This document shows positions 2,479 to 19,693 of a stretch of 52,645 nucleotides of DNA, piece by piece. Within the stretch, counting starts at the first letter, position 1. Each line of letters starts with the position of its first letter. The DNA is from a virus (lineage: Duplodnaviria > Caudoviricetes): IMG/VR virus record IMGVR_UViG_3300048858_000048, positions 1-52,645 of that record. One strand, 5' to 3'. The translations under genes were made by a program, and so were the position numbers. The notes beneath the pieces were generated by a model, which was given only the letters and a program-made list of their open reading frames with translations, ran no database searches and was not told the DNA's origin.

Positions 2479-3920
2479 GCCGCGACCACCGCCTCCGGCT
2501 GCCTTGACAGCACCCTATGACGCCCAAGTCGCCCCGGCTCACTGGCCGGCGAGATCAACCCGGCCTCGACGAACTCGGCAATGATCGCTTCGACCGTGCT
2601 GTCGCGACGGCCGATCCCTCGGCAAAGGTCCGCGCGATCGAATTCGTCCCGCTGCAGGACCCATGCCCGCGCGTCCTCCCGGTCACGATCGACCCGCTCG
2701 TGAAGTTCCAGTTTAGGTGTCGTGCGGGGCGCATCGTCGAAGTACATACCAAGCGCATGACCGCCCTCGCCCGGCTCCAGCGCTTCCGTGTCGACATGGT
2801 CTTTCCAGTCGATCCGACGCATGATCGTCGTATCGCCATAGCTGCCGTCCTCTTGCCGTTCCCAAACCACCCAAGCCGTGTTCATGCGGCTGGACGCCTT
2901 CGGCCCCTCGTAGCCTTCGCGATGCATCATCGGCAGACGGCGCTTGAAGACATAGATCCGCGCTGGCGGGCATTCATCCATGACGAAATTGCGATCCTCG
3001 TCGGCAAAGCCGGCCAGGACATTGAGGTTCAGCAGTAGCGCCAGCTTGCGTGGTTTGTAGACGCGCAGCGCATGCGCGATGAAAGCATTGAGAACTTCGC
3101 CATAAGGCGGGTTAGTGACGATATCCGGCCCCTCCCCCACGGCTTCCGGCTTGCTCAGAAGGAAGTCGCCAACCGACTGGACGATCCCGGCCTCGGAGAT
3201 GGCGCCGCGATCCTCGATATCTGACAGGATTACGTCATAGCCATGCGCCTCGAAGACACGGCCGATGGCGTTGTAACCGCAGGCCGGGTCGAAGACCGTT
3301 GACGTGAAACTCTCGTGGGCCAGAAGCGAGATCGTCGCGACATCGGGCGTCTGATAGAAGTTCTGACCCCGATCTTCCTTGGAAGCCGAGGCCGTGCCGA
3401 TCGCGGCGCGCAGGCTGTTCTTCGTCGGCAGCATGCCCTGCGCGGAAATCCCAACGATGGTGCGGCGGATCACGCCTGGCTCTTTCAGCTCCGCATCACG
3501 CAGCTTTCGGGCGTCGAGAACCACCTGTTTGTCGAGGCCGAAATCTTCAAGCCGAAAAAGGTCTAGAGTTTCGACCTTTTTCGGCCGCCCTCGCGAGGCC
3601 ACCACGCCGGCCGCCTGCGCCGCGTCATATTCGTTAGCGAGCGCCACCCGTGCGAGGCTGCCGATTTCGAGCGCTTCGACCACCATTGCATGCGCCCGGC
3701 TGATGACGCCTTCGCTCGCTTTCATGCGGGCCGCGAAGCCGTGTGCGGCCTTGGCCTCATCATAGGCGCCCTCCGACAGCATCATCGCCGCGCGCATGTC
3801 GCCGGCGTCGAGGAGCTGCCGCGCCTGGTTGATGCGTTCGGCAAGGGCGCGGGTATCGAAACGGTCGACGGGAACCGGAACCGGCTGCGGATCGGGGAGA
3901 GCGACGGCCGCCATCATCAC
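2475..3920 (-). CDS. Amino (N6A/N4C) DNA methyltransferase with N-terminal helical extension
   Basis: FYQTP, SAM-binding FDPACG, catalytic TNPPY; overlap-coupled to neighbours. Confidence 0.75.
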   Translation of the reverse strand: MMMAAVALPDPQPVPVPVDRFDTRALAERINQARQLLDAGDMRAAMMLSEGAYDEAKAAHGFAARMKASEGVISRAHAMVVEALEIGSLARVALANEYDAAQAAGVVASRGRPKKVETLDLFRLEDFGLDKQVVLDARKLRDAELKEPGVIRRTIVGISAQGMLPTKNSLRAAIGTASASKEDRGQNFYQTPDVATISLLAHESFTSTVFDPACGYNAIGRVFEAHGYDVILSDIEDRGAISEAGIVQSVGDFLLSKPEAVGEGPDIVTNPPYGEVLNAFIAHALRVYKPRKLALLLNLNVLAGFADEDRNFVMDECPPARIYVFKRRLPMMHREGYEGPKASSRMNTAWVVWERQEDGSYGDTTIMRRIDWKDHVDTEALEPGEGGHALGMYFDDAPRTTPKLELHERVDRDREDARAWVLQRDEFDRADLCRGIGRRDSTVEAIIAEFVEAGLISPASEPGRLGRHRVLSRQPEAVVAA

Positions 3921-5042: not shown

Positions 5043-5296
5043 TGCAGGGCCTCGACAACCGAACGAGGCTCCGGACGCACAATAGCGCAGTCGGGCCACA
5101 CAGCGCCGGCCGGCCAATTGTCTGAGAACCAGTGAATTGCCTCGTTAAAGCGAGCCGTAGTCAAGTCCGCCCCCGTCCTTAAAGCCCCCAATTTCTTGCT
5201 GTCCGCAAACACGCGACCGCTCACAGTTTTTTCCGCCACGCCAGAGGCGCGTTGATACGCGTCAGAAATCAGAAGCAGGTCAGCGATGTCGAACAT
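5039..5296 (-). CDS. Cro-like repressor
   Basis: Divergent from cI; MFDIADLL..YQRASGVAEKTVSGRVFADSKKL..WFSDNWP is a typical alphaproteobacterial phage Cro-like sequence. Confidence 0.7.
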   Translation of the reverse strand: MFDIADLLLISDAYQRASGVAEKTVSGRVFADSKKLGALRTGADLTTARFNEAIHWFSDNWPAGAVWPDCAIVRPEPRSVVEALQ

Positions 5297-5306
5297 GGAA
5301 TCACTA

Positions 5307-5380
5307 TCGGTTAAATTACCGAATAGCGCAACGATTTTATTACCGATATCCAATCTTCTGCATTCTGGTAAAAATACCAG
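5307..5380. promoter_or_regulatory. cI/cro operator region (OR-like): three related 16-bp sites
   Basis: TCGGTTAAATTACCGA (5307-5322), ACGATTTTATTACCGA (5331-5346, half-site), CTGGTAAAAATACCAG (5365-5380). Confidence 0.75.
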
Positions 5381-5381
5381 A

Positions 5382-6116
5382 ATGGAAAGCACCATTTATG
5401 AGCGCATCAAAGAGCGCCTTGACGCCTTGGGTTTGACGGAGACCACCGCCGCCAGAGCTGCTAATTTAAGCGAGGGAGCGATCCGAAATATCCGCCGTAG
5501 ATACGAGCGGGGCGAGCGACAGGTCGGGATCAGCTCGACCACCGCCGATAAATTGGCGCCAATCTTACAGACGTCCGTCGAATGGATCGTCGCGGGAACC
5601 GGCGAGCCGCAGGCTGCGCAACAAGCCCCACCCGCAACACCCCTCGTCCGACCAGGCCGGCCCCGCTCGAACGCTAGTTTTCCCCCGGTCTACCAGCGGT
5701 TTTCCGGAGAAACCACGCTCCCTGTGCTAGGCCAGACCAGTGCAGGCCCCAATGGTCGCTTCATCTTGAATGGGAGTGAAGTCGGCAGGGTATTCACGCC
5801 CCCGATGCTCGAAGGGGTCGAGGGCGCCTATGCTGTGCGGGTATACGGGACTTCTATGGAGCCCCGCTATTTTGCCGGCGAAACAGTCTGGATAAATCCC
5901 AGAGAGCCTGTGAGGGCGGGCGATGACGTAGTCGTTCAGTTGCTCACTGAAGTCGAGCACGAGCGGGAAAGTTATATTAAAAAGTTTGTTTCGAAATCTG
6001 CCAAGGTCACTCGCCTGTATCAATACAACCCTGATGAGGGCGAAGCCAACGAGCTTGAATATCCTTCAGACCGCGTGTTTTCCGTACATAAAATTGTTTT
6101 CCACGCTTCCGTTTGA
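5382..6116 (+). CDS. CI-like repressor, HTH plus S24 autopeptidase domain
   Basis: N-terminal HTH (AARAANLSEGAIRNI), Ala-Gly site (TSAG), catalytic Ser (GTSMEP) and Lys (YIKK). Confidence 0.9.
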   Translation: MESTIYERIKERLDALGLTETTAARAANLSEGAIRNIRRRYERGERQVGISSTTADKLAPILQTSVEWIVAGTGEPQAAQQAPPATPLVRPGRPRSNASFPPVYQRFSGETTLPVLGQTSAGPNGRFILNGSEVGRVFTPPMLEGVEGAYAVRVYGTSMEPRYFAGETVWINPREPVRAGDDVVVQLLTEVEHERESYIKKFVSKSAKVTRLYQYNPDEGEANELEYPSDRVFSVHKIVFHASV

Positions 6117-6489: not shown

Positions 6490-6563
6490 TCGGTAATATT
6501 ACCGAAACGGGCTTGTATATCGGTAAATTTACGGCTAGCTTTTCGGCATCGGTAATCGACCGA
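6490..6563 (+). promoter_or_regulatory. Early-operon promoter/operator region (OL-like)
   Basis: Perfect palindrome TCGGTAATATTACCGA (6490-6505), TCGGTAAATTTACGGC (6520-6535), TCGGTAATCGACCGA (6549-6563); putative -35 TTGTAT (6513), 17 nt, -10 TAGCTT. Confidence 0.75.
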
Positions 6564-6581
6564 TGCAACAAGGAGCCCCCG

Positions 6582-6887
6582 ATGCACAAGTCCAACAAGA
6601 AAGCCCTTCCCCGCCTGACCCGCGATATTTTTGCCGCGAAGGTCGCCGGTGCAAAATCCAAGCATGACCTATATCGCGCTGGCTTTGACGACGAGGTGAT
6701 TGCCGCAACGGCCGCCGGCGTCGAGGCACTGACCCAGTCGCTCGAAGACGGCATTTTCAACGCCTACCTCTCCGGTTGCCGCCTCGAAAAGGACTATATC
6801 GCCGCCGGTTTTTCGCCGGAAGAACTCGCACTCGTCTCCGATCGCGTTGCCAAGAGGGTGCGTGCCGCCGAGCCGATGGCAGCCTGA
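6582..6887 (+). CDS. Hypothetical protein, first gene of early operon
   Basis: AAGGAG RBS then ATG at 6582; internal repeat LYRAGF / YIAAGF. Confidence 0.7.
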   Translation: MHKSNKKALPRLTRDIFAAKVAGAKSKHDLYRAGFDDEVIAATAAGVEALTQSLEDGIFNAYLSGCRLEKDYIAAGFSPEELALVSDRVAKRVRAAEPMAA

Positions 6888-6970
6888 AAGCGAGCCGCCT
6901 TGGCCCGCTTCGGTGACCGGCTCCCGACGAGGGGGAGCCGGCATCCCAATCAGGCGAAAGGACCAACCCC

Positions 6971-7321
6971 ATGAGAAACAAGGAAGAGGCCGGTCAGATT
7001 GACCGGGCGGCCGGCACGCGCTTGCGCACTATCCGGAAAGTGCGCGGCATATCGCAGGAAGCGCTTGCCGCCGCTATCGGCGTCACGTTTCAGCAGGTGC
7101 AGAAATACGAGAAGGGCACAAACCGAATTGCGATCTCGACGCTCGTTCTCATATGCCGCGCCTTGAATTGCACGCCGATGGAAATCATCGGCGAGGATCT
7201 CGATCGGAGCGCCACCGCGACGATCGACACGCTGGCAAGCCACAACGCGGATCTGGTGCGCCGCCTTGCCGAAGTCGCCAAGATCGCCCGGCTCCCGCAG
7301 CGTGGGGAGATGCGCATATGA
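6971..7321 (+). CDS. XRE-family HTH regulator
   Basis: RKVRGISQEALAAAIGVTFQQVQKYEKGTNRI. Confidence 0.9.
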   Translation: MRNKEEAGQIDRAAGTRLRTIRKVRGISQEALAAAIGVTFQQVQKYEKGTNRIAISTLVLICRALNCTPMEIIGEDLDRSATATIDTLASHNADLVRRLAEVAKIARLPQRGEMRI

Positions 7322-8145
7322 GCGAGAAGCCGTCAGACGAAAAACAGCATTTCGGCTGGTTCCAGGCGCGCTATCTGGCGCCGCTTTTTCCGTTCGTCGA
7401 GTATGCCCGCGAGATGGACCCGCTGCGCTTTCTCGATGGCAGCATCGGGCTGGAGCCCTGCGCCGAGGGCGGCGCCTATCTGGTCGCCGTGACCAGTAAT
7501 GCAACGGTCATCATTCGAGATCCGGAAGCTCATATCGACGAGCCTGTCACGCTCGATATCCCTGACGCTGCATTCATGCGGGCGCAGCCCATCTTTGCGC
7601 CCTGCATGAATTATGAAGGTAGGCACTACGCCGTGCCTGCACCCGAGTGGTCGCAGCCGGGTTTCATCTATGTTTATCGGGCCGGGATGCATATCGCCCC
7701 CAAAATGCGCCACCCGATGTGGGCCGAGGAAGCCTACGATTTCCAGCCGGCCCTGTTCGGTGTCGGCACCAGCGTGGGCAAACATGAAATCGGCCATGAC
7801 TATCGCATGACCGACGGTTCGCCGGCGAACTGGCGCGCCCTTCTGAAAAACGTCAACACGACCCCGCTCGCGGACGATTCCACCCTCTTCTTCAATCCGA
7901 GGGTTCCGGCGCTCTTCTTCGACCTGGTTGATGCGGTTTTCGAATATGAGGCCGATCGCCGCGAAGATCCGTGGTTCGCCGTCGCCCACACGATAGCAGC
8001 GACGAAGAACGCGAACACCGCCATCGTCCGCTTCATCGGCCACCCTGACATTATCGGCCTTTGGGCAGGCCAGAGGGCGACCGAGCCGCTCGCACCCATC
8101 CCGGCGCACTTCTTCGACATTCCAACGGCGGAGGACGGCCAGTGA
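7318..8145 (+). CDS. Hypothetical phage protein, possible divergent beta-clamp-like fold
   Basis: LRFLDGSIGLEP..GGAYLVAV resembles the clamp segment 'R.L.G......LVATD'; ATGA-coupled. Confidence 0.5.
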   Translation: MSEKPSDEKQHFGWFQARYLAPLFPFVEYAREMDPLRFLDGSIGLEPCAEGGAYLVAVTSNATVIIRDPEAHIDEPVTLDIPDAAFMRAQPIFAPCMNYEGRHYAVPAPEWSQPGFIYVYRAGMHIAPKMRHPMWAEEAYDFQPALFGVGTSVGKHEIGHDYRMTDGSPANWRALLKNVNTTPLADDSTLFFNPRVPALFFDLVDAVFEYEADRREDPWFAVAHTIAATKNANTAIVRFIGHPDIIGLWAGQRATEPLAPIPAHFFDIPTAEDGQ

Positions 8146-8690
8146 GCAACGCGCCCCTCAAGTCGACCCATCTCGATTTCATCAACAGCCAGGATGACTT
8201 CGACGGCGCAATTCGCGCGATCGAGACGGCATTGCCGGATGCCTACTGGCACCTTGCCAAGGGCAAGATCTCTGCGAACGAAGCGCTCTATGCCGCCGTC
8301 ATATTCGACGGCGTCACGCCGATCGGCGACGCGGAAAGCGATCTGGGGCCGGGCGATGCCCTGCGCCGTGCGCTCGCAGCCGCACTGTCCGGAACATGGG
8401 TAAACCCGGTCGACGACGATCCGAGCGACCAGGACATCATCCGGCATATCGCCACTGTTGCCACCCGTATCGGCGACCGTGCCGGCGAACCCGCCATGGA
8501 GCTAGCCGGCCAGATCATCTCGGTGCTCGCAGCCAACCCGGAGATGACCGGAGACTTCATGACACACGGGGCGGAACTGTTCATCGACGGGCGCATGAAC
8601 GTCGAGCACGGCTGCCTCCCCTATCGGGCAATCAATGGCACGATCGTGTCGCCGGCCCTCCTCCGCCAGAAGATGGGGATCGCGCAGTGA
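8142..8690 (+). CDS. Hypothetical phage protein
   Basis: GGAGG RBS, GTG start overlapping upstream stop. Confidence 0.65.
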   Translation: MSNAPLKSTHLDFINSQDDFDGAIRAIETALPDAYWHLAKGKISANEALYAAVIFDGVTPIGDAESDLGPGDALRRALAAALSGTWVNPVDDDPSDQDIIRHIATVATRIGDRAGEPAMELAGQIISVLAANPEMTGDFMTHGAELFIDGRMNVEHGCLPYRAINGTIVSPALLRQKMGIAQ

Positions 8691-8941
8691 GAAAGTCGAC
8701 GATCAATTTTCCGAAGCTCGACGACGATATCGATGAGGCGGACTCGCTGGCAGCCTTCGAAGAGCGCAGCCGCCGGCTCGTCGACGACGAACGGCGGATC
8801 GTCATCCGGCGCTCGGCAATGGTGCTGGTCAGCCTTCCGCGGATCTCCATGCACGTCGCAATGCGGGCCAAGCCCGAAGCCAAAGAACCCACCGCATCGC
8901 CGGAGAGGCCTAAAGTCCTCCGCGACGCCAAGTATTCTTGA
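8687..8941 (+). CDS. Hypothetical protein
   Basis: GTG start (VRKSTINF) overlapping upstream stop. Confidence 0.5.
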   Translation: MRKSTINFPKLDDDIDEADSLAAFEERSRRLVDDERRIVIRRSAMVLVSLPRISMHVAMRAKPEAKEPTASPERPKVLRDAKYS

Positions 8942-8955
8942 GGAGGCAAACGCCG

Positions 8956-9861
8956 ATGGGTAGCAAAACCTCAATATCTTGGTGCCGCTATACGTGGAAT
9001 CCTTGGATGGGCTGCACGAAAGTCAGCCCCGCTTGCGACGGATGTTACGCCGAAGCGATGATGGACAAGCATTACCACAAGGTCGAATGGGGACCGCATG
9101 CCACGCGGGTCCGCACCAGGCAGGAAAACTGGAACGAGCCGCTGCGCTGGCAGCGCCGCGCCGAACTCGACGGCGACAGACCTTTTGTCTTCTGCGCCAG
9201 CCTTGGCGATATCTTCGACAACCAGGTGGAGCCAGCATGGCGGCGCGATGCCTTCGATGTCATGCGCCACACGCCGAACCTTGTCTATCTGCTGCTGACC
9301 AAGCGGCCGGGAAACATCGTGCGCATGGCCGATGCAGCCGGCGGTCTACCTGCGAACGCTGCCCTCGGCACGTCGGTCGAGGACCAGCCGCGAGCAGACA
9401 AGAACGTTCCGGCGCTGCTGACGGCAAAGGTCGAGCTGGCCCCGCTCTTTGCCTTTCTCTCCTGCGAGCCGCTGCTCGGGCTGACCAAGATCCCGATGAT
9501 TGAGCTTGTCGATTGGGTTATTGCCGGCGGCGAAACGAGCCAGATCGGTCACCAGGCGCGCCCGACGCACCCGGATTGGTTCCGCGAGCTGCGAGATCAG
9601 TGCGCAGCGGCCGGCAAGCCGTTCCATTTCAAGCAGTGGGGAGAATGGACGCCCGGTGAAAACGTGCCGCACACCGTGCGGGGTCGCCGGGCTTCCGCCC
9701 ACTGGTTCGCTGACGAGTGGTCGATCGGCTCGACCAATATGAATGATCCGGAAGACGGATGGATGGACGAGCCGGATGTGTATCGCATCGGCAAGGCCAA
9801 CACCGGCCGCATGCTGGACGGCGTCGAGCACAACGCTTTCCCGGCGGTGGCACCGCTATGA
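8956..9861 (+). CDS. Phage Gp37/Gp68 family (DUF5131) protein
   Basis: TWNPWMGCTKVSPACDGCYA, FCASLGDIF, LLLTKRP, SCEPLLG, WVIAGGE, FHFKQWG. Confidence 0.9.
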   Translation: MGSKTSISWCRYTWNPWMGCTKVSPACDGCYAEAMMDKHYHKVEWGPHATRVRTRQENWNEPLRWQRRAELDGDRPFVFCASLGDIFDNQVEPAWRRDAFDVMRHTPNLVYLLLTKRPGNIVRMADAAGGLPANAALGTSVEDQPRADKNVPALLTAKVELAPLFAFLSCEPLLGLTKIPMIELVDWVIAGGETSQIGHQARPTHPDWFRELRDQCAAAGKPFHFKQWGEWTPGENVPHTVRGRRASAHWFADEWSIGSTNMNDPEDGWMDEPDVYRIGKANTGRMLDGVEHNAFPAVAPL

Positions 9862-10004
9862 TCCGAGACGCATTTTTCACGGCCGCCGTCGCGATCGCCC
9901 TCGCCCTCGTCAGCGGCTTACTCGGCTGGATCATCGGCAAGGACCAGTCCATGCCCGCCCGATGCCTCCCCCGCACCAACATCCTCGACATTCGGGAGTC
10001 TTGA
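9858..10004 (+). CDS. Small membrane-anchored hypothetical protein
   Basis: MIRDAFFTAAVAIALALVSGLLGWII; ATGA overlap. Confidence 0.5.
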   Translation: MIRDAFFTAAVAIALALVSGLLGWIIGKDQSMPARCLPRTNILDIRES

Positions 10005-10006
10005 GC

Positions 10007-10828
10007 ATGGATCTCCTCACACCCGGCGCCAAGCTCGCAAAACTGACGGCCACCGATATCCGGCTTGGCATGTCCAAGCGATGGGCGGCACCCGAATATG
10101 CCATCATGTGGGAAGTTTCCAACGCCACCGGCGGCGCCGCGAAGCGATATGCCGATGCGATCATCATGTCCCTTTGGCCCTCGCGCGGGCTGGAGCTGCA
10201 CGGCGTCGAGATCAAGATCAGCCGCTCCGACTGGAAACGCGAGGCTGCCGATCCAAGCAAGGCCGAGACGATCGCCCGCTTCTGCGATCGCTGGTACGTC
10301 CACACGGCGCCCGGCGTTGTCGACGATCTGTCCGCCGTGCCGCCGGCATGGGGGTTGCGGGAGTTTGACGGCAAGGTCTGGCGCACCATCCGCGAGGCCG
10401 CCAAGAACGAACCGGAGCCGATGACTCGGTCTTTCCTCGCAGCACTCCTGCGGCGTGCGGACGATACGATGCGCCTCATGATCAACGAGGCCACACGCGA
10501 GGCCCGCGATCGGCAGGCGGATGAGATGGAGAGGTTTCGCGAGAGCCGCAATAAGGAGATCGAGGAAGCCGCCGCCAGGCGCACGGCCCATCTTGAGAAC
10601 GCAGCCAAGAATATTGAACTGTTCGAGGCAGCCTTCGGTCAAAACACCCTGACAAATTGGGCGGTCGATCACGCCGCGCTTGGCCGCGCAGCTCGCGTTT
10701 TGAGCGAATGCGGATCGAAGAATTACGGCAACCTCGCCAAACGCTTTCGCGCCGCCGCAGACGAGATCGACGCACTGGCTGCCCTAGTCGACCCGCCGGC
10801 AAAGAGTGGGGAGCCAGCCGATGCCTGA
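10007..10828 (+). CDS. PD-(D/E)xK nuclease-like protein (MmcB-like)
   Basis: RYADAII..LHGVEIKISRSDW. Confidence 0.7.
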   Translation: MDLLTPGAKLAKLTATDIRLGMSKRWAAPEYAIMWEVSNATGGAAKRYADAIIMSLWPSRGLELHGVEIKISRSDWKREAADPSKAETIARFCDRWYVHTAPGVVDDLSAVPPAWGLREFDGKVWRTIREAAKNEPEPMTRSFLAALLRRADDTMRLMINEATREARDRQADEMERFRESRNKEIEEAAARRTAHLENAAKNIELFEAAFGQNTLTNWAVDHAALGRAARVLSECGSKNYGNLAKRFRAAADEIDALAALVDPPAKSGEPADA

Positions 10829-10994
10829 TGCCACCCTCGACGAGAAACTGTCGGAATTCCTCGACGCCCTCGATGAATGGGGCTGCGACGACAATCTGGC
10901 ACGCGCCAGGCACATCCTCGAATTTCAACGCCACGGCTACGACCTCTCCGAATACGAAGAGCATCCATTCCGTGAAAAGTCGGAGCTGAACTGA
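10821..10994 (+). CDS. Hypothetical protein
   Basis: GGAG RBS, operon coupling. Confidence 0.5.
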   Translation: MPDATLDEKLSEFLDALDEWGCDDNLARARHILEFQRHGYDLSEYEEHPFREKSELN

Positions 10995-11317
10995 TGACCT
11001 CTGATGCGCCCTTCAACCCTGCAGACCCGTTCGACGCGACGATCGAGGATCTGCGGAAATCGCTCACCCTGTCCGTCGCGTTCCACATAGAGAACCATCA
11101 GCCCATGCAGCTGCTCGACCACGGCAGGCGCTACCAAGCGGTTATGATCGCCCTTCTCGTGACGACGACCGGATGCCTGGACACACTGACGTTGCCTGGC
11201 AACGAAAAGCACATGCTCAGGGCGATCAAGTCCTACCTGCCCGAGGCACTTCGGATTGCGCGGGAAATCGCCGCAAACGGTGAGATGGAAGTGGCGAAGG
11301 GGGAGGCAAAACATTGA
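10994..11317 (+). CDS. Hypothetical protein
   Basis: TGATG coupling, GGAG RBS. Confidence 0.6.
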   Translation: MTSDAPFNPADPFDATIEDLRKSLTLSVAFHIENHQPMQLLDHGRRYQAVMIALLVTTTGCLDTLTLPGNEKHMLRAIKSYLPEALRIAREIAANGEMEVAKGEAKH

Positions 11318-11553
11318 CCACCGACAACACGCCGATTTCACCAATAGCAGTCTTGGCTGCTTTCGCGGACCAGAAGGTCAAGCTTCCCCTCCGCATGTCA
11401 GGCGAGGACGCCGGCGTCATACTTGATGACGATGGCGTGGACGTTCTCACAGTGGACAGCAACGGTATGCGCGCTGACGACGAAGCACTCGCGATCGCCA
11501 CATTGATCGTGAGCGCTGTAAATCATCTCGCAGGACTGGAGGGCTCAAAATGA
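11314..11553 (+). CDS. Hypothetical phage protein
   Basis: GGAGG RBS, TTG start overlapping upstream stop. Confidence 0.6.
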   Translation: MTTDNTPISPIAVLAAFADQKVKLPLRMSGEDAGVILDDDGVDVLTVDSNGMRADDEALAIATLIVSAVNHLAGLEGSK

Positions 11554-12074
11554 AGGGCCGTCCCGTATTTCTTCCAAAGCCAGTGCGGAAATCTGGCGGT
11601 GCCCGGCCACCGCATCCCGCCGATCAGAACGCGAAAAAACTCCCCCGTCACCCGCACACGGATGATTTCTTCGTGACCGAGTTCGCCGAAACGATGAAGG
11701 ACAAACTTGCGCTCAAGCGCGGGGAAGGTCGCGGCGGATGGGAGAACAAGGAAGAGTGCTCGGGAGAATTCCTGTCGCAGCTCCTCCGCGAACATGTCGA
11801 GAAGGGCGACCCGGTCGACGTTGCCAACTTCTGCATGATGCTGCACCAGCGCGGCGAGCGGATATCCCCAGCACCCCAGCCACATTTGGCGGGCGTCACC
11901 GATGCAGAACGCCTGGAAGATTTGCGCCTCGCCGCTAAGGCGATCCGCACGTATATGCCGGAGACGCTTCCCGCAGGTGAAGACGGTAAAATCCATTTTG
12001 CTCGCGCTCTAGCCGAAGCTGCGGCCGATGCGATCGAGGCAGTGCTCGCCACCATGGAGGGCTCGGCAGAATGA
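11550..12074 (+). CDS. Modular phage early protein (all-alpha, MazG/Ead-like domain, linker, second module)
   Basis: KLALKR..GRGGW..LREHVEKGDPVDVANFCMMLH is a recurrent phage domain; contains linker copy 11865-11900. Confidence 0.6.
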   Translation: MKGRPVFLPKPVRKSGGARPPHPADQNAKKLPRHPHTDDFFVTEFAETMKDKLALKRGEGRGGWENKEECSGEFLSQLLREHVEKGDPVDVANFCMMLHQRGERISPAPQPHLAGVTDAERLEDLRLAAKAIRTYMPETLPAGEDGKIHFARALAEAAADAIEAVLATMEGSAE

Positions 12075-12823
12075 GCCGCACCCTGTGCTGGATATCCGGC
12101 GGCGCTGCCAGCGTCATTGCCGCCAAGATTGAGTTGACCGATAACCCGGCCGCGATCTGTGTCCGCTGCGACACTAACAACGAGGACGAGGACAACCAGC
12201 GCTTCGAGGCAGAAGCCCTGTATTGGCTCAATGCCGAGTTTCATATCATCAAGTCCCAGGACTATGACGGCGTAGTGGATGTTTGGGAAAAGCGGAAGTT
12301 TATGGCCGGGCCGAAGGGCGCGCCGTGCACTTTGGAAACGAAGATCATTCCGCGCCTCGAATTCCAGCGTCCGGATGATATCCACGTTTTTGGCTACACC
12401 GCCGACAAACCCGATGTAGCTCGCTTTGCGAGGCTGAAGGCCAACTATCCGGAACTGATCGTCAAGGCGCCGCTCATCGCCGCCGGCATCGACAAGTCAG
12501 GCGCACTGGCGATGTTGTTGCGGGCGGGGCTGACTCCGCCGCGCACCTACGCCATGGGCTTCCCGAACGCCAATTGCCTGCAGACGGGATGCGTCAAGGC
12601 GACCTCGCCGGATTACTGGTCCCTCTTTCGCCAGAAGTTTCCGGAGCGGTTTGCCGCGATGGCAGAGCGTTCACGGCGTATCGGAGCGCGCCTTGCTCGC
12701 ATCAATGACGAGCGCATCTTCATCGACGAAATCCCCGCCGACTGGCCGGTCACCAACCCGATCGCGCCCGCCTGCGACTTCATCTGCCAGTTGGCGGAAA
12801 TGGACATGGAGAAGGTAGCATGA
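12071..12823 (+). CDS. PAPS-reductase-like / adenine nucleotide alpha hydrolase family phage protein
   Basis: PP-loop-like WISGGAAS, APCTLETK, YAMGFPNANC..GCVK. Confidence 0.7.
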   Translation: MSRTLCWISGGAASVIAAKIELTDNPAAICVRCDTNNEDEDNQRFEAEALYWLNAEFHIIKSQDYDGVVDVWEKRKFMAGPKGAPCTLETKIIPRLEFQRPDDIHVFGYTADKPDVARFARLKANYPELIVKAPLIAAGIDKSGALAMLLRAGLTPPRTYAMGFPNANCLQTGCVKATSPDYWSLFRQKFPERFAAMAERSRRIGARLARINDERIFIDEIPADWPVTNPIAPACDFICQLAEMDMEKVA

Positions 12824-14985
12824 ACGATCTCATGATCGATATCGAAACGCTCGGTCATCGGCCGGGAAGCGTGATCGCCAGCATCGGCGCAATCGAGTTC
12901 GACGCCGCCACCGGCGAATTCGGCCAGAGCTATTATCTCACCGTCGATCCGGAAAGCTGCCAACGACATGGCCTCAAGATCGACGCATCCACGGTGAAAT
13001 GGTGGATGACACAGAGCGAAGAAGCCCGAGCCAGCACGTTCGCCGAGGGCATTTCTATCAACCATGCTCTTCTCGATCTCACGCGGTTCGTCCAGGATTG
13101 CGAGCCCGCGAGAATATGGGCGCATAGCCCATCCTTCGACGTCGTGCAGCTGGAAGCAGCCTATGAGGCTTGCGTCTCCCCGTGCCCATGGACCTACAAG
13201 CAACCTCGCGACACGCGGACGCTCTTCGACCTCGCAGGCGTCAAGATCGAGAAGAACGGCGTGCACCACAACGCTGCGGACGATGCTCGCGCCCAGGCAG
13301 AAGCCGTGATCCGCGCCTACCAGCAGCTCGGCTTGTCCTCCCCAGCGCCCCAACCGAACGTGGCGGGCCTTACTTCTCCTGCTTCAACCTCTCCCATTCG
13401 TCCGGTTGAAGCGCGGCCTGAAGGACAACATCAACCTGATCAAGGTACGACTGCCACATCGGCCTGCCCTCAAACTTCGCGTTCTCCGGTAGCCCATGAA
13501 ACCGACACAGAGCGCGAGCTGCACGCTCACGAGGACTTTTTTGACGAACAGTCATCGGAACCCTCCGAAGGAAAACGGCGGCATCTTACCACGACCGCCC
13601 CGCCCCAACAGCATTTGCGGGTTCATTCGTCACGTCTGACGCTGTTGTCGATACTGTGCCTCTGCCTAACTAGCGCATCTACTCGCCTGTCCGATTTGAT
13701 CTCCTGCCATGTTACCCATGCGATTAAGGCGATAAACATCAGGCCAACCACCCGAGTAACCCAAAGTGCCCCAGTAGGCCCGAAAACCGCCACCAGTGGC
13801 GCAGCGCGCGAATATGAAGTGACGTCTCTGATTAAGATCAGTTCTGCCAAAAAGAAGGCGATCAGGCCTATTCCGATCACCTTGGTGTTGAACAACTTTC
13901 TCACAGCATTGTCCTTGCCGCTCTCAAGGGCCTCCGAACGATCTTTCCCAGAGGCTATCCCCAATCAAGATAGCGGATACGTCCAAGAACGGAAGAAGGC
14001 CGATGCCTGCTGCAACCTAGCTGGATTGCACCAGCTGGCGCCCCCATCACCCCAACCTAAAGTGGTGCCTCTAACCTGCCAATGTGCCAACACCGTCACC
14101 GATCCCTGCATCGTATGCGGCAGGGGCAAAACACTCGTTACCGTTGAGTGGCTGCAAAAGATGGCGGCGAAGGAAGGTGATCTCGATTGCACGACGGGCC
14201 GCCCATCCCCCGTAACCAATGTGCTGCCGCCTGTTGTCACTGGCCAGAGGGAGATTGAACCGGACGTCACATCCGCAGATTTGGGCGTGAATGCTGAACC
14301 GGCCGATGACGAAATCGGTCCGCATGAGCAGGCGTTGCGGGATGCCGTCGAGCCTTTCTTAGATTGGCTGGAGATGCGTGAAGAAGGAGCCCATATCCAA
14401 GAAGTACGAGACGGCCTGATTGGCGTGGAAGACGTTCTCCCCGACGATCTGGTCGTTTTGGGCGCCCACCTGCGTGCTGACAAGGATCAAGGCGTCCTGA
14501 CGATGGGGCACTTCCGTCGATTGCAGAATGCCTATGACGGCAACGCCACCCCATCGCCCCAACCGAATGTGCTGCCGCCTGTCGTGACCGGACAGCTGGA
14601 AATCGAGCAGGACGTGACAGCAACCGATCTAGGGGCAAACGCCGAACCCGACGCCGACGACTATTGCCCGGCTTGTGGTGGCAGTGGCCGTGTCGGGCCA
14701 TTCTTTCCGGGTGGCCTATCCACAGTCTGCGGCAATTGCTCCGACACCGTGCCCCCATCGAATGTGACGGGCCTCTCCGACGAACAGCGCGGCGTTGGTA
14801 TTGGAATGGCGATCGCGGCCGGCATCGTCATGAAGTCGTGGGGCAACGACACCTACGCCCGCGAGATCCTCGGTGCGGCCGGCCTCCACACCCTCGAAAA
14901 GCTCAAAGCATCAGGTGTCGATCAATACGACATCGATCTAGTGATCCCGGCCCTTGCCGCCACCGCGACGGAGGCAAGCCGATGA
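12820..14985 (+). CDS. 3'-5' exonuclease (DEDDh, exo VIII-like) fused to a linker-separated multi-module tail
   Basis: MIDIETLG, SFDVVQLE, RDTRT, HNAADDA in the first ~170 aa; the rest is a mosaic with Cys-rich modules. Confidence 0.75.
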   Translation: MNDLMIDIETLGHRPGSVIASIGAIEFDAATGEFGQSYYLTVDPESCQRHGLKIDASTVKWWMTQSEEARASTFAEGISINHALLDLTRFVQDCEPARIWAHSPSFDVVQLEAAYEACVSPCPWTYKQPRDTRTLFDLAGVKIEKNGVHHNAADDARAQAEAVIRAYQQLGLSSPAPQPNVAGLTSPASTSPIRPVEARPEGQHQPDQGTTATSACPQTSRSPVAHETDTERELHAHEDFFDEQSSEPSEGKRRHLTTTAPPQQHLRVHSSRLTLLSILCLCLTSASTRLSDLISCHVTHAIKAINIRPTTRVTQSAPVGPKTATSGAAREYEVTSLIKISSAKKKAIRPIPITLVLNNFLTALSLPLSRASERSFPEAIPNQDSGYVQERKKADACCNLAGLHQLAPPSPQPKVVPLTCQCANTVTDPCIVCGRGKTLVTVEWLQKMAAKEGDLDCTTGRPSPVTNVLPPVVTGQREIEPDVTSADLGVNAEPADDEIGPHEQALRDAVEPFLDWLEMREEGAHIQEVRDGLIGVEDVLPDDLVVLGAHLRADKDQGVLTMGHFRRLQNAYDGNATPSPQPNVLPPVVTGQLEIEQDVTATDLGANAEPDADDYCPACGGSGRVGPFFPGGLSTVCGNCSDTVPPSNVTGLSDEQRGVGIGMAIAAGIVMKSWGNDTYAREILGAAGLHTLEKLKASGVDQYDIDLVIPALAATATEASR
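13370..13555 (-). CDS. Small hypothetical protein nested antisense in the exonuclease ORF
   Basis: GGAGG RBS; protein-like sequence KSPRERAARALCRFHGLPENAKFEGRPMWQSYL; stop codon abuts linker copy 2. Confidence 0.7.
   Translation of the reverse strand: MTVRQKSPRERAARALCRFHGLPENAKFEGRPMWQSYLDQVDVVLQAALQPDEWERLKQEK
13623..13964 (-). CDS. Two-TM membrane protein nested antisense in the exonuclease ORF (start may be GTG at 13904)
   Basis: Two hydrophobic helices (VIGIGLIAFFLAELILI; VVGLMFIALIAWVTW); visibly lower GC; stop codon abuts linker copy 3. Confidence 0.6.
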   Translation of the reverse strand: MGIASGKDRSEALESGKDNAVRKLFNTKVIGIGLIAFFLAELILIRDVTSYSRAAPLVAVFGPTGALWVTRVVGLMFIALIAWVTWQEIKSDRRVDALVRQRHSIDNSVRRDE

Positions 14986-15233
14986 TCAGAGACTACATGG
15001 GCAAGGCCGAGTTCGACGACGAGGCACGTGAAGGAACGCGCGTCCTGGCCAAAGAGGAGTTTTGCCGCCGCTTTGTTGAGTACATGACACGGGAGGCTGG
15101 CTTCGAAGTCTTCGATAACGGGCAAACCGTTCGCGCCTATGCGGAAGAAACCGCCCCCGACTATTGGGATAACAGTCCCGACATCCCACCGGAAGAAGCC
15201 GCAGAAGCCGACATGGATTGCTGGGAGGATTGA
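14982..15233 (+). CDS. Hypothetical phage protein
   Basis: GGAGG RBS, ATGA overlap; acidic C-terminus PEEAAEADMDCWED. Confidence 0.65.
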   Translation: MIRDYMGKAEFDDEAREGTRVLAKEEFCRRFVEYMTREAGFEVFDNGQTVRAYAEETAPDYWDNSPDIPPEEAAEADMDCWED

Positions 15234-15282
15234 CCATGACAAAAAATGACACCCCAGCGCCGCAGACGAGGGAGATTGGGAA

Positions 15283-15447
15283 GTGATCTGGACGCTTTTT
15301 ACCATTTGCGCGGTCACCGCCCTCCACGGAATGACGATCATAAGCAGCCAAAAATCGCTTAGCGCGTGGTTTGCAAGCCTGATGCCGCTCTTTCTGGGGC
15401 TCAACGGCATGGTCATCGCAATTGTCCTGAGACACTGGGGATTCTGA
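15283..15447 (+). CDS. 54-aa two-TM membrane protein (not in ORF track)
   Basis: GGAG RBS then GTG; MIWTLFTICAVTALHGMTII...LMPLFLGLNGMVIAIVLRHWGF; TGATG coupling to next gene. Confidence 0.5.
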   Translation: MIWTLFTICAVTALHGMTIISSQKSLSAWFASLMPLFLGLNGMVIAIVLRHWGF

Positions 15448-15668
15448 TGACAATGGCTGACAAGCTCACAAAATGCCCGGCGTGCAGCGGTCGTGGATAC
15501 TTCCGCTGCGACTGCTGGCCGGGTGACTGCTTCTGCAGTGAAGGTGATGAAACCTGCTGGGAGTGCGAAGGCGAAGGGCGGATTGATCCGAGCAACGACG
15601 AGTTCGGAGGAGACGTCGGAACGCCCGGCCCACCTGCACCCGTAGAGAGGGATTGCGACGATGTCTGA
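15447..15668 (+). CDS. Cys-rich zinc-finger protein (DnaJ-type CxxCxGxG repeats)
   Basis: CPACSGRG...CDC..DCFC...CWECEGEG. Confidence 0.6.
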   Translation: MTMADKLTKCPACSGRGYFRCDCWPGDCFCSEGDETCWECEGEGRIDPSNDEFGGDVGTPGPPAPVERDCDDV

Positions 15669-15810
15669 CGCTTGGCGGCAGGGCCGCGCAGCTTACCTTG
15701 CTGCGGTTCCGGAGAGCGACTGCCCATTCGATATGATGCTGCAGTGGGAGCAGTGGGCCGACTGGATCTGCGGATATGGTGAAGCCAGAGAGGAGGGCGA
15801 TCGCCCATGA
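15661..15810 (+). CDS. Rmf/CrpP-fold-like small protein (not in ORF track)
   Basis: MSDAWRQGRAAYLAAVPESDCPF...WADWICGYGEA fits the G..A.......CP(F/Y)......W..G(W/Y) pattern. Confidence 0.55.
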   Translation: MSDAWRQGRAAYLAAVPESDCPFDMMLQWEQWADWICGYGEAREEGDRP

Positions 15811-16010
15811 CCCTTATCAAGCACGAGGGCAAGATGCAGGTGACTTGCAACGCCTGCCCCGCCACCTATCGCCGCACCTATGCGGAAGAGGATTTCCATA
15901 TCCTCCTGACCGACATCAAGGCCGAAGGTTGGCGCATCAAGCGTCAGGCAGACGAGTGGACGCATAGCTGTCCGGACTGCTCAAAATGGACCGAAAGGAG
16001 ATTGCTCTAA
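15807..16010 (+). CDS. Small zinc-binding phage protein
   Basis: CNAC...GW...HSCPDC; GGAGG RBS. Confidence 0.7.
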   Translation: MTLIKHEGKMQVTCNACPATYRRTYAEEDFHILLTDIKAEGWRIKRQADEWTHSCPDCSKWTERRLL

Positions 16011-16444
16011 TGGTGGCCTACGGTTTCAAATCCTTCTTCGCGCCGCAGATCGAGAGCGGTTTCAAGCGGCAGACGGTGCGCGGCGATCGCAACCGCCATG
16101 CACGACCGGGCGAACTGATCCAACTTTACCAGGGCATGCGCACCAGGTCCTGCCGGAAGCTCATTCCCGACCCACCTTGCACCGGCGTCGACCGCATCGT
16201 CATCGAGCGCCAGGCCGTACCCATTACCGCGATCGAGATCAACGGCGTCCGGCTGACTGATGACGAGATCGAGGAGTTTGCCCGCCAGGACGGGTTCGCA
16301 CCCGAGCACCTGAAGGGCGCCGCCGGCCTCGATAGCCACCTAGCCCGCTGGAACATGGCGATGTTCTGGTCGCTCAATCATCCCAACCCCGGAAACTTCG
16401 AAGGCGTGCTGATCCGCTGGGACCCGAGAGGAGCTGCAGCATGA
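16010..16444 (+). CDS. ASCH/PUA-like domain protein
   Basis: F..FAPQIESGFKRQTVR..RHARPGELIQLY..FARQDGF. Confidence 0.75.
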   Translation: MVAYGFKSFFAPQIESGFKRQTVRGDRNRHARPGELIQLYQGMRTRSCRKLIPDPPCTGVDRIVIERQAVPITAIEINGVRLTDDEIEEFARQDGFAPEHLKGAAGLDSHLARWNMAMFWSLNHPNPGNFEGVLIRWDPRGAAA

Positions 16445-16992
16445 CGCTCGATCTCTTCCCCGCCATGAAGATGACTGCCAAGTTCTCCGACTGCCGCACC
16501 TACCGGTATCTGTTCGGTCGCGTCTGGGACGATAGTCTCCGGATCTTGCCGGTCGCGATGCTGAACCCGTCGAGGGCCGACGCCGATCGCAACGACCCCA
16601 CCGTGACCACGCTCATTCATTTCGCGAAGCTCTGGGGTTATGGCGGCCTGTCAGGCGCGAACTTGGCCGCCCTCGTTAGTTCGCAGCCGAGGGTGATGAT
16701 GGCCCATCCGGACCCGATCGGCCCGGAGAACGATCAACATATCGCGCAGTTGCTCAACCTGGCTCGCCATACCGGCACGCCGGTGCTCGCGGCATGGGGC
16801 AACGGCGGCAGCTTTCGCGGCCGCGATGAATGGTTCATCAACAGAGCCCGCGCCGCCTTCGTCGACCTAGTCTGCCTCGGCGTTACCAAGGACGGCTTTC
16901 CCAAACATCCGGCAGCACGTGGCACCCATCGAATCCCGCGCGATCAGCAACCCATCCTCTGGAAACCGTGGCGGGAACCAGCAGACCAATGA
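16441..16992 (+). CDS. DUF1643 family protein
   Basis: FSDCRTYRY.. MLNPSRAD..DPT..AAWG..CLGVTKDGFPKHP. Confidence 0.85.
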   Translation: MTLDLFPAMKMTAKFSDCRTYRYLFGRVWDDSLRILPVAMLNPSRADADRNDPTVTTLIHFAKLWGYGGLSGANLAALVSSQPRVMMAHPDPIGPENDQHIAQLLNLARHTGTPVLAAWGNGGSFRGRDEWFINRARAAFVDLVCLGVTKDGFPKHPAARGTHRIPRDQQPILWKPWREPADQ

Positions 16993-17015
16993 GCCTTCCC
17001 GACACCAGCGCGCCC

Positions 17016-17129: not shown

Positions 17130-17756
17130 ATGGCATTGATCGGATACGCCAGGGTCTCGACCGTAGACCAGGACACCAGTTCGCAACGAGACGCCCTCAC
17201 CCGCGCCGGCTGCGACAAGATATTCGAGGACATTGCTTCTGGCGCAAAGGCTGACCGTCCCGGTCTTGCCGAGGCGATGGCCTATCTGCGCGAAGGTGAC
17301 ACGCTGGTCGTCTGGAAACTTGACCGAGCCGGCCGATCGCTGAAACACCTGGTCGAGATGGTCGCCGAGCTGGAGGCCAAGAAGGTCGGTCTGAAGTCGA
17401 TCACCGAGGAGATCGACACGACAACATCTAATGGCCGGCTTTTCTTCCACCTCTTCGGTGCCTTTGCCCAGTTCGAGCGGGACCTTATTAGGGAACGCAC
17501 GCGCGCAGCATTGTCGGCTGCGAAGGACCAAGGCCGTCGCGGCGGGCGCAAGCCGGTAATGAACCCGGAGAAGCTTGCACGCGCGAGGCAGCTGATCGAG
17601 GAGAACGGTCTGACCGTGAAGGAAGCCGCTGGCCGACTGAAGGTCGGAAAGACCGCGCTATACGCAGCATTCAAGGCCGAACGTCGCGGTGCGCCGCGCC
17701 TTCCGGCCGCGTTGGGAACCACCACGAGGACTAAAAGTGAAACCATAGGGGCATAA
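17130..17756 (+). CDS. Serine recombinase (resolvase/invertase family)
   Basis: MALIGYARVST.DQ, DTLVVWKLDR.GRS, ERDLIRERT, C-terminal HTH. Confidence 0.95.
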   Translation: MALIGYARVSTVDQDTSSQRDALTRAGCDKIFEDIASGAKADRPGLAEAMAYLREGDTLVVWKLDRAGRSLKHLVEMVAELEAKKVGLKSITEEIDTTTSNGRLFFHLFGAFAQFERDLIRERTRAALSAAKDQGRRGGRKPVMNPEKLARARQLIEENGLTVKEAAGRLKVGKTALYAAFKAERRGAPRLPAALGTTTRTKSETIGA

Positions 17757-19009: not shown

Positions 19010-19693
19010 ATGCCAGTAGTTGTCATGTGCTCCACGAAAGGTGGAGTGGGAAAATCAACCGCCGCACTCGTCCTGTCGCAGGTGTATTGCGCGGCCGGCA
19101 AAGCAACCGCGTTGATTGATGCAGATCCGAACCAGCCGCTCGCAACCTGGGCAAAACGCTCGGCCGAGGCCATCCCCAAAAATTTAACCGTCATCGGCGG
19201 GATCAACGAACAGACGATCATCGACACGATCGAGGACGCGGCCGCGAAAAACACCTTCGTCATTGTCGACCTCGAAGGCTCGGCGAACATGACCGCCACC
19301 TATGCGGTAAGCCGCGCCGACCTGGTCTTGATACCGATGCGCGGCAAGCAGCTCGACGCCGACCAGGCGGGGAGGGTGGTCGCCTTTATCAAGCAGCAAA
19401 ACAAGGCGTTCGGCCGTGACATCGCCTATCGCGCGATGTTTTCCATGATGGATCAGCTCACGAGCCGAGAGGAGCGACATATTCGGGCGATGCTTGCGGA
19501 AAACGGGATACCGATCCTGCCGGCCGCATTGAAGAATATGGCCGCATTCTCCGCCATTTTCCAGACTGGCGGCACGATATTCGACCTGACCAAGGAGGAT
19601 GTCACCAACACCTCCAAGGCGATCCAGAACGCCGGAGAGCTGGCGCAAGCCGTCGCCGCAGCCATTCCAACGAAAAGGGCTAAGGTAGCATGA
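19010..19693 (+). CDS. parA: ParA-family partition ATPase (short, type Ib)
   Basis: Deviant Walker A KGGVGKST, LIDADPNQ, VIVDLEG. Confidence 0.93.
   Translation: MPVVVMCSTKGGVGKSTAALVLSQVYCAAGKATALIDADPNQPLATWAKRSAEAIPKNLTVIGGINEQTIIDTIEDAAAKNTFVIVDLEGSANMTATYAVSRADLVLIPMRGKQLDADQAGRVVAFIKQQNKAFGRDIAYRAMFSMMDQLTSREERHIRAMLAENGIPILPAALKNMAAFSAIFQTGGTIFDLTKEDVTNTSKAIQNAGELAQAVAAAIPTKRAKVA

Follow-up and report, generated by a model that had tools for sequence, protein, structure and literature searches.

The DNA considered here, referred to throughout as the window, is the complete 52,645-bp IMG/VR virus record IMGVR_UViG_3300048858_000048 (Duplodnaviria; Caudoviricetes), the genome of a soil phage with direct terminal repeats and a completeness rating of 100%. 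Within a long rightward operon of small genes (∼6500-17000, + strand), a 23-nucleotide (nt) word, CC CCA nCn CCC CAR nCG AAT GTG, recurs at domain boundaries of early proteins; it translates as PxPQxNV, typically as the peptide PSPQPNV, and is called the linker in what follows.

Two open reading frames (ORFs) carry most of the copies. The first is a 174-amino-acid (aa), two-module gene at 11550..12074 (+), in which an N-terminal module of family phrog_8298 (aa 32-105 of 174) ends directly before linker copy 1, a 57-aa C-terminal module follows, and the gene end, ...TMEGSAE, overlaps the next gene through ATGA; its homologue in a Neorhizobium prophage (G008/L071) is unfused, stopping directly behind the linker's 5′ half (PSPEPIAEASR). 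The second is a 721-codon stop-free ORF at 12820..14985 (+), reproduced letter for letter when the probable source run was assembled independently (X1; 0 other letters); in this ORF an exonuclease, two cassettes with genes on the opposite strand and four small modules, M4-M7, are joined by copies 2-7. The Rv2179c-like 3′-5′ exonuclease domain (12820..13335, +; PF16473, E 7e-50) is the sole recognised domain of this ORF, covering aa 2-163 by Pfam and 1-171 by PHROG and ending just before copy 2. M4 is Cys-rich (CQC...CIVCG; 14077..14199, +), M5 helical (14311..14547, +), M6 a zinc knuckle (CPACGGSG...CGNC; 14659..14745, +) and M7 again helical (14776..14985, +), ending in ...ATATEASR with an ATGA overlap. 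An AlphaFold2 model of aa 408-721 from 44 aligned sequences reached a mean predicted local distance difference test score (pLDDT) of 59 and a predicted template-modelling score of 0.32, too weak for a fold search, and was therefore used only for the low confidence of the linkers and the confident helices of M5 (pLDDT 75-88) and M7; the linkers and the acidic segments that follow two of them fall below pLDDT 50 and are predicted to be disordered. The polyprotein label given to the 721-codon ORF in a preliminary description of this DNA gains no support from Pfam, which recognised no protease domain there. A second conserved junction word was observed at gene ends of the form ...T(A)TEGxxE or ...ATEASR plus stop (12048-12074, 14960-14985, 11302-11329 and many other loci), a form these ends take because an in-frame GGAGG ribosome-binding site lies just before the ATGA stop/start overlap.

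Of the eight linker copies in the window, four are strong and three are degenerate, and one is truncated; they share the early-gene (+) strand and a single reading phase and stand at domain boundaries. The strong copies are copy 1 (11866-11888; CC CCA GCA CCC CAG CCA CAT TTG, SPAPQPHL), copy 2 (13340-13362; SPAPQPNV), copy 4 (14042-14064; PSPQPKV) and copy 6 (14549-14571; PSPQPNV), the last matching the consensus exactly. Copies 3 (13595-13617; APPQQHL), 5 (14201-14223; PSPVTNV) and 7 (14752-14766; PPS-NV, the word minus 9 nt) are degenerate. Copies 5 and 6 head the acidic segments AC1 (to 14310) and AC2 (to 14658) respectively, and each heads a 111-nt repeat, the two being 72% alike. All seven copies listed in the preliminary description were found where it had placed them, on the + strand and in the host frame, one of them in the separate gene at 11550-12074, and its siting of them at module boundaries agrees with the ends of phrog_8298 before copy 1 and of the exonuclease (aa 163-171) before copy 2. 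The length of 30-36 bp given there needs correction: the conserved core has sharp edges and measures 23 nt, and ∼35 nt are shared between copies 1 and 2 only. An eighth copy, absent from that description and truncated to the 5′ half (15252-15269, +), lies within a 16-codon ORF at 15237..15287 (+; MTKNDTPAPQTREIGK, then stop), which consists of a start cassette and the half-linker followed by AGGGAG and the GTG start of the next gene at 15283.

With up to three mismatches allowed, the consensus has three matches in the window against 0.00 in 100 shuffles; a shorter 15-nt pattern has four against a shuffle mean of 1.13, four being reached in one of the 100 shuffles. Over the whole record the word pattern gave three forward and no reverse matches, with controls at 0/0. 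No inverted repeat, dyad symmetry or stable hairpin was found at the copies, which fold no better than shuffles; RNA at five of six window copies folds less well than shuffled sequence, with z-scores of +0.67 to +1.32 that are not significant. A search of 11000-16000 against Rfam gave no matches and no conserved RNA structure, and a promoter and terminator scan found one promoter-like site in 5 kb, none at a copy, and no terminator at the copies. Frameshifting at CCC-C was considered and dropped, the distance to the next stop in the shifted frame being ordinary, as was a resemblance to a sigma-32 -10 element or an integron core site, which the word does not fit exactly.

The word in related phages

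The word stands next to differing modules in the window and in the early regions of at least 10 other phage or provirus records (G001, G005-G011, G013 and L072), three of them prophages (of Pseudorhizobium, Neorhizobium and Rhizobium). Nine forward matches to a loose DNA pattern lie at 48600-52901 of G001, and loose-pattern copies, always on the early-gene strand, are clustered in G005-G011 and G013; reversed-pattern controls, run over ten relatives' records, gave 0-1 match per record; three remoter exonuclease-bearing records (G002-G004) showed no word cluster. Across 11 early regions, 26 of 26 matches to CCCCARNNNMATKTG share both the strand of the early genes and the phase of the long ORF. 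The 5′ half by itself (CCNNCNCCSCAR) has 52 occurrences on this strand and four on the opposite one. A degenerate 21-nt pattern found 37 matches in the viral collection, many of them running into stops or lying at low GC and many probably due to chance, and only loci with several variant copies were taken further from that scan.

Codon usage was assessed on 31 copies gathered from 12 early regions by the peptide pattern P-x-P-Q-x-[NH]-[VL]. Third codon positions, whose free variation the preliminary description had named as the mark of a merely low-complexity Pro-rich peptide, are largely fixed: the first Pro is CCA in 26/31 copies (background 0.21, p 1e-13) and the second CCC in 28/31 (background 0.21, p 2e-16), Asn is AAT in 20/21 (background 0.40, p 1e-7), His is CAT in 6/6, Val is GTG in all 12 copies that had not been selected for GTG (background 0.26, p 1e-7), and Leu is TTG in 7/8 (background 0.16, p 2e-5). 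The first base does vary in codons 2 and 5, giving S/A/T/P and P/T/S/M. Positions -2 to +20 carry high information content, which is at background at -3 and +21 and beyond. The fixed synonymous codons and the sharp information edges both show the conserved unit to be a sharp-edged 23-nt nucleotide word and more than a Pro-rich peptide.

What follows the 5′ half takes two principal forms. Among the 52 copies of this half, 31 continue as MAN-NTG plus a module, giving a fusion, and eight run into a ribosome-binding site of the AGGGAG type and meet a stop within 16 codons, an arrangement that yields separate genes; the other 13 have other or unclear continuations. The stop form is itself conserved, with CCG AGG GAG GTG GGG TC present in three phages. 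In G001 the word leads straight into the ATG that starts, in the window, the DUF1643 gene, and in other loci only 6-7 residues separate a canonical start from the copy (as in MTKNDT-PAPQTNV and similar sequences).

Homology breakpoints and module partners

G001, the nearest relative (53.5 kb), is 76-87% identical to the window over most of the genome (about 80% overall), and a single 720-bp cassette at 14550..15269 (+) is 99.0% identical to it, with both edges inside linker copies. The left edge of this patch falls inside copy 6, at 14550-14553, and the right edge after ...CAGACGA of the truncated copy (15269), beyond which G001 continues with AATGTG and a module named ‘LEW’ and the window with GGGAG and the GTG start of a small membrane-protein gene. 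The G001-like arrangement recurs in contigs of two other runs (X2 and X5), and the arrangement of the window in the probable source run. No linker-to-linker deletion was reported for the contigs, an assembly product from which rare variants are lost.

That breakpoints might fall away from the motif was named in the preliminary description as evidence against its proposal; they concentrate on it. In an all-versus-all blastn comparison of 13 early regions, 17 of the 138 internal ends of high-scoring segment pairs (HSPs) lie within 5 nt of a word, against a null mean of 1.8 (maximum 7 in 1000 draws), and in the corresponding blastp comparison a linker is no more than 10 aa away from 25 of 61 internal ends (expectation 12%, maximum 26%). 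Because the search patterns miss some variant copies, the HSP-end counts are conservative. At least eight separate events lie behind the word-associated breakpoints: besides the cassette shared with G001, they include a 602-nt, 99.5% identical duplication in G005 that begins and finishes at linkers, pairs of paralogues within G007 and G009, breakpoints between G009 and a Rhizobium rhizophilum prophage, G010 and G013, and G001 and G010, and the DUF1643 gene start in G001. Crossover points vary within the word (14550-14553 at the left edge of the patch, after ...CGA at 15269, after AAT in G005), a variation in keeping with homologous, not site-specific, exchange. For these comparisons the early-region strings of G001 (terminal repeat), G010 and G013 (both classed as linear) were joined from record end to record start; ORFs across the joins, namely an apparent second PAPETN copy in G001 and an exonuclease-tail fusion in G010 and G013, are artefacts and were not used, and the HSP ends counted lie in real sequence on either side of the joins. 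The linear records G010 and G013 were seen to end at homologous places, their two ends falling in a ‘KGETRTRFHIEW...’ module and in the exonuclease gene; G013 is ∼0.9 kb short there by comparison with a circular Rhizobium rhizoryzae plasmid, and an assembly break or a real end is possible.

Module order also varies. A search with aa 408-721 returned 48 homologues of 175-532 aa, each covering 8-40% of the query, and the window order M4-AC-M5-AC-M6-M7 is kept in none of them, so that the fixed order in relatives that would have spoken against the earlier proposal is not what the homologues display. Of the 48, 26 contain M5, 10 contain M6, six contain M4 (P0031, P0033, P0035 and P0037-P0039, where it occurs alone) and five contain M7, each module having other partners, which include Lar (PF14354), DHH, R67-DHFR-like and MazG-like modules and DnaJ-type Zn fingers; M7, for example, follows DHH or R67-DHFR-like modules in P0027 and P0034. 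One Zn-ribbon N-module with its linker is followed by four different C-modules (twice in G005, and in G008 and G010), a ‘WVTDEM’ module is found both free (MTQHKN-PSPETNL-...) and fused, and ‘LEW’ modules follow the linker in three phages. Two side observations concern such modules. The 29-aa M6 (CPACGGSGRVGPFFPGGLST.CGNC) also sits inside C5 DNA methyltransferases (P0043-P0045 and P0047; one from Nitratireductor, the rest metagenomic), there without the linker word. A small DnaJ-type CxxCxGxG zinc-finger protein at 15441-15668 (+) has a degenerate Pro-rich tail in the window, and its G009 homologue bears the linker word and an extra C-module.

Two cassettes within the 721-codon frame had been described as antisense genes, of which one is a real gene and the other a candidate. 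Antisense gene 1 (61 aa; 13370..13555, - strand), bracketed by copies 2 and 3, has a GGAGG-N6-ATG start and relatives at seven viral loci (63-76% identity), and these two features establish it as a gene; in two other phages (L050/G013 and L051/G012) it adjoins a linker with unrelated modules beyond. Candidate antisense gene 2 (13623..13964, -; likely GTG start near 13910), bracketed by copies 3 and 4, has the look of a small membrane protein, and no close relative of it or of M4-M5 was found in viral contigs. Seen from the minus strand, each is flanked by linkers in reverse complement. The + frame across them (13375-14040, 666 nt) has no stops, the other two + frames having 11 and 10, and synonymous shuffling of both minus genes left the + frame open in 960 of 20,000 trials (4.8%), a borderline hint, and no proof, that read-through of the + frame is under selection. 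The NCBI pipeline annotates a + strand ORF across the homologous region of the R. rhizoryzae plasmid. A comparable stretch was noticed in the Neorhizobium galegae prophage G008/L071 (string coordinates 9412-11898), where an 829-codon stop-free frame comprises a Zn-ribbon module, the linker PAPQMSL and then ∼590 codons that are not protein-like, as in the antisense stretch of the window, and that possibly overlie opposite-strand genes.

The phage and its probable host

The early operon lies near genes for an S24 repressor-type protein (5286-6116), the sole peptidase noticed, and for ParA (19010-19693), and a serine recombinase gene (17130-17756) lies ∼2 kb downstream of the linker array; the tail, terminase and DUF4815 genes are all on the minus strand, with packaging and tail genes apart from the early operon. 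A search of the complete 52.6-kb record for tyrosine recombinases (PF00589, Phage_integrase) gave no matches, with the control search positive in 14/14 genomes, and a corresponding Pfam search for RecT, ERF and AAA_24 gave none either. The combination of serine recombinase, ParA and S24 repressor-type protein without a tyrosine integrase gives the genome the look of a temperate phage or phage-plasmid, and the existence of a relative in R. rhizoryzae as a 54-kb circular plasmid suggests the latter lifestyle.

The host is probably a member of the Rhizobiaceae, judging from three kinds of sequence match: a 150-nt DNA match in that 54-kb R. rhizoryzae plasmid; the exact linker word in the genomes of Pseudorhizobium pelagicum, Neorhizobium galegae and Rhizobium rhizophilum; and the sources of the homologues of aa 408-721, which include Rhizobium rhizogenes, Sinorhizobium meliloti, Shinella, Neorhizobium and Agrobacterium vitis. 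A blastn search of 11500-15300 against phage and plasmid collections gave short matches only, corresponding to the conserved domain upstream of copy 1 and to the 61-aa gene in the R. rhizoryzae plasmid.

Elsewhere in the window, a 330-aa protein at 7153-8145 (+) belongs to no Pfam or PHROG family; its atlas neighbours are phage clusters in which DNA_pol3_beta_2 is found in a minority of members (17-50%), its structural neighbours are sliding clamps (template-modelling score 0.55-0.66), and it is a candidate phage clamp-like protein. At the left record end, a C5 cytosine methylase gene (559-2478, -) adjoins a second DNA methyltransferase gene (phrog_799; 2475-3920, -).

Readings of the word and comparison with known systems

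We regard the word, with moderate confidence, as a phase-locked homology handle through which the early genes of Rhizobiaceae phages exchange modules in frame. It would act as a portable junction, a short patch of DNA identity common to many otherwise unrelated early accessory modules and carried by a group of Rhizobiaceae temperate phages and phage-plasmids, within which homologous crossover between co-resident phages or prophages, or between copies in one genome, could swap, duplicate, delete or insert modules. Since the word is kept in one codon phase and encodes a stop-free peptide rich in Pro, Ser and Gln, the products of such crossovers would stay translatable as multi-module proteins. 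The 5′ half (CCAnCnCCCCARnCG) would act as the 3′ tail of the upstream module, after which either AAT-GTG and the next module would make an in-frame fusion, or an AGGGAG site, a stop and a restart would leave separate genes. Codon identity across unrelated modules, variable crossover points and copies at which a role for the peptide makes little sense (just after starts, just before a Shine-Dalgarno sequence and stop in 8/52 cases, and around opposite-strand genes) together favour this reading. For temperate phages of Escherichia coli, experiments have shown mosaics to arise mainly by homology-driven recombination, with traces at fragment borders (PMC3945230). We infer that crossover at the word is likewise driven by homology, the peptide being mainly a passive linker, and that the acting enzyme may be host RecA or an unrecognised phage function.

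Several points weigh against a homology handle. No recombinase was recognised in the phage by the Pfam searches for Phage_integrase, RecT, ERF and AAA_24, and 23 nt of identity come close to the minimum generally cited for homologous recombination. The variable residues are conservative (S/A/T/P; P/T/S/M; N/H; V/L), which also fits selection on the peptide, and the near-invariant 3′ NTG (GTG, TTG, once ATG) resembles a start codon in a way that a pure homology handle does not explain; given these two features, the word may have an additional function in translation or as a peptide. Breakpoints at domain boundaries would also be expected if modules joined at random and selection then kept the products that fold, and a few of the blastp ends may be affected by the end-to-start joins in G001, G010 and G013.

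Should the peptide be the functional unit, as a protease cleavage site (hence a true polyprotein) or a docking motif, recombination at the word would be incidental. The pattern P-x-P-Q-x-[NH]-[VL] is indeed kept through conservative changes in the 31 copies and in many of the 48 homologues, it lies in segments predicted to be disordered, and the rarity of an open frame in the synonymous shuffles of the antisense genes suggests that read-through translation matters. Selection on a peptide, however, leaves the fixed synonymous codons unexplained, and it sits badly with copies 6-7 residues after starts, just before stops and around opposite-strand genes, and with a 721-codon ORF in which Pfam recognises no protease domain, the S24 repressor-type protein being the only peptidase at hand; we consider it improbable.

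A translational element at a stop-less boundary, where an unstructured C/A-rich stretch would allow GTG or TTG starts without a Shine-Dalgarno sequence and hence nested single-module products, is a somewhat weaker candidate and unlikely. It would account for the last codon, GTG, TTG or ATG in 31 of the 52 copies of the 5′ half against backgrounds of 0.26 (GTG) and 0.16 (TTG), for the abutment of the G001 word on the DUF1643 start codon and for the poor folding at five of six window copies. Against this, no Shine-Dalgarno sequence is present, genes built as Shine-Dalgarno sequence, ATG, leader and word would not need such starts, and the folding scores lack significance. Combining features of these readings, the word might be more than a homology patch, namely a dual-coded, phase-locked, ‘splice-site-like’ signal with which an unrecognised phage function assembles accessory, probably anti-defence, proteins and which additionally supplies Shine-Dalgarno-independent GTG/TTG starts at a stop-less boundary. 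The odds are similarly poor for this proposal; if it were true, modules could be made both singly and as fusions from one frame, which might even accommodate entire opposite-strand genes.

A dedicated site-specific system that excises and inserts cassettes, whether integron-like or based on a word-cutting nuclease, is very improbable. The word is sharp-edged and fixed in orientation, it brackets cassettes of inverted orientation, and a serine recombinase is encoded 2 kb downstream (17130-17756), but there is no tyrosine recombinase, the word has neither dyad symmetry nor a hairpin, and crossover points vary within it. Chance occurrence of low-complexity Pro-rich sequence in a GC-rich genome can practically be dismissed: the 37 degenerate 21-nt matches in the viral collection, many running into stops, are by a rough estimate of the order expected by chance, yet 0.00 matches are expected in window shuffles, and the clustering of copies on one strand, in one phase and with fixed codons already contradicts it.

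Viewed as a phase-locked homology handle, the word has its closest counterparts in systems of motif-mediated modular shuffling. The boundary or linker sequences of lambdoid phages, reportedly treated in the modular theory of Susskind and Botstein and for HK620 by Clark et al. in 2001, likewise appear as short conserved words bordering exchangeable early units of small, translationally coupled genes, with breakpoints on the words. Here, in contrast, the word lies inside ORFs and in one codon phase, giving in-frame domain fusions, and is common to Rhizobiaceae phages in both a fusion form and a form with a stop and ribosome-binding site. The tail-fibre adhesins of T-even phages are also said to recombine through His boxes and glycine-rich motifs (reportedly by Tetart et al. 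in 1998), conserved in-frame motifs that serve as crossover points for swapping protein segments; those lie within one homologous family, whereas one word here joins unrelated domains (nuclease, Zn fingers, MazG-like).

In T4-type phages, promoter early stem-loop (PeSL) cassettes comprise a repeated short element flanking small accessory ORFs in plastic regions, with recombination between copies shuffling modules and mini-circles demonstrated (Arbiol et al. 2010, PMC2839356); excised circles had been anticipated for the present DNA in the preliminary description. The flanking of small accessory ORFs by a repeated element and the shuffling of modules are shared with the present case; PeSLs as described there, however, are intergenic sigma-70 promoter-plus-terminator units, whereas the word is translated, with no promoter-like site or stem-loop at the copies. 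Polyvalent proteins are often >2,000 aa and are distinguished by linkage to packaging (late) or conjugative-transfer genes (Iyer et al. 2017, PMC5512222), in which text the term ‘linker’ has no occurrences. They share with the window the union of disparate small domains in one polypeptide, variable architectures and probably conflict-related functions (Lar, methylase-associated, nuclease). The proteins considered here are instead 170-720 aa long, with one conserved word as the joint between their modules, and the ORF lies in an early operon near repressor, nuclease and ParA genes, with packaging and tail genes elsewhere on the opposite strand. Integron cassettes are similar in that small cargo units stand in an array, with a repeated site marking their limits. 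The integron-like system of the preliminary description is nevertheless not borne out: no IntI or other tyrosine recombinase and no attC-like imperfect palindrome accompany the word, which is neither palindromic nor structured, and the units are translated through rather than placed behind Pc, some of them inverted, so that they are not promoterless units of one orientation.

The core of the earlier proposal, a linker that serves as a seam for the gain, loss and shuffling of in-frame cargo, holds, while the claim of an undescribed system does not, the logic being that of known motif-mediated modular shuffling. As far as sequence comparison can tell, the same word flanks unrelated modules in several phages and the homology of relatives starts and ends at the word, as for boundary words elsewhere. 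The word differs from these systems in its translation in a fixed phase, the joining of unrelated domains, the paired fusion and stop forms and the inverted cassettes within an open frame; neither the peptide PSPQPNV nor a description of the word was found in the literature on boundary sequences, linkers and domain shuffling (subscription papers and supplements lay outside the scope of that search).

The linker offers a concrete, sequence-defined seam for assembling phage accessory proteins from small domains, conserved even at synonymous positions among phages that share a host family but are otherwise unrelated, and with recent exchanges visible base by base. Unusual features of this seam are the embedded opposite-strand genes and the alternatives of fusion or stop plus ribosome-binding site after the same 5′ half. 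Such a word opens the old ‘linker sequence’ idea of modular phage evolution to direct testing, and it provides a simple marker for dividing the early proteins of Rhizobiaceae phages into functional modules.

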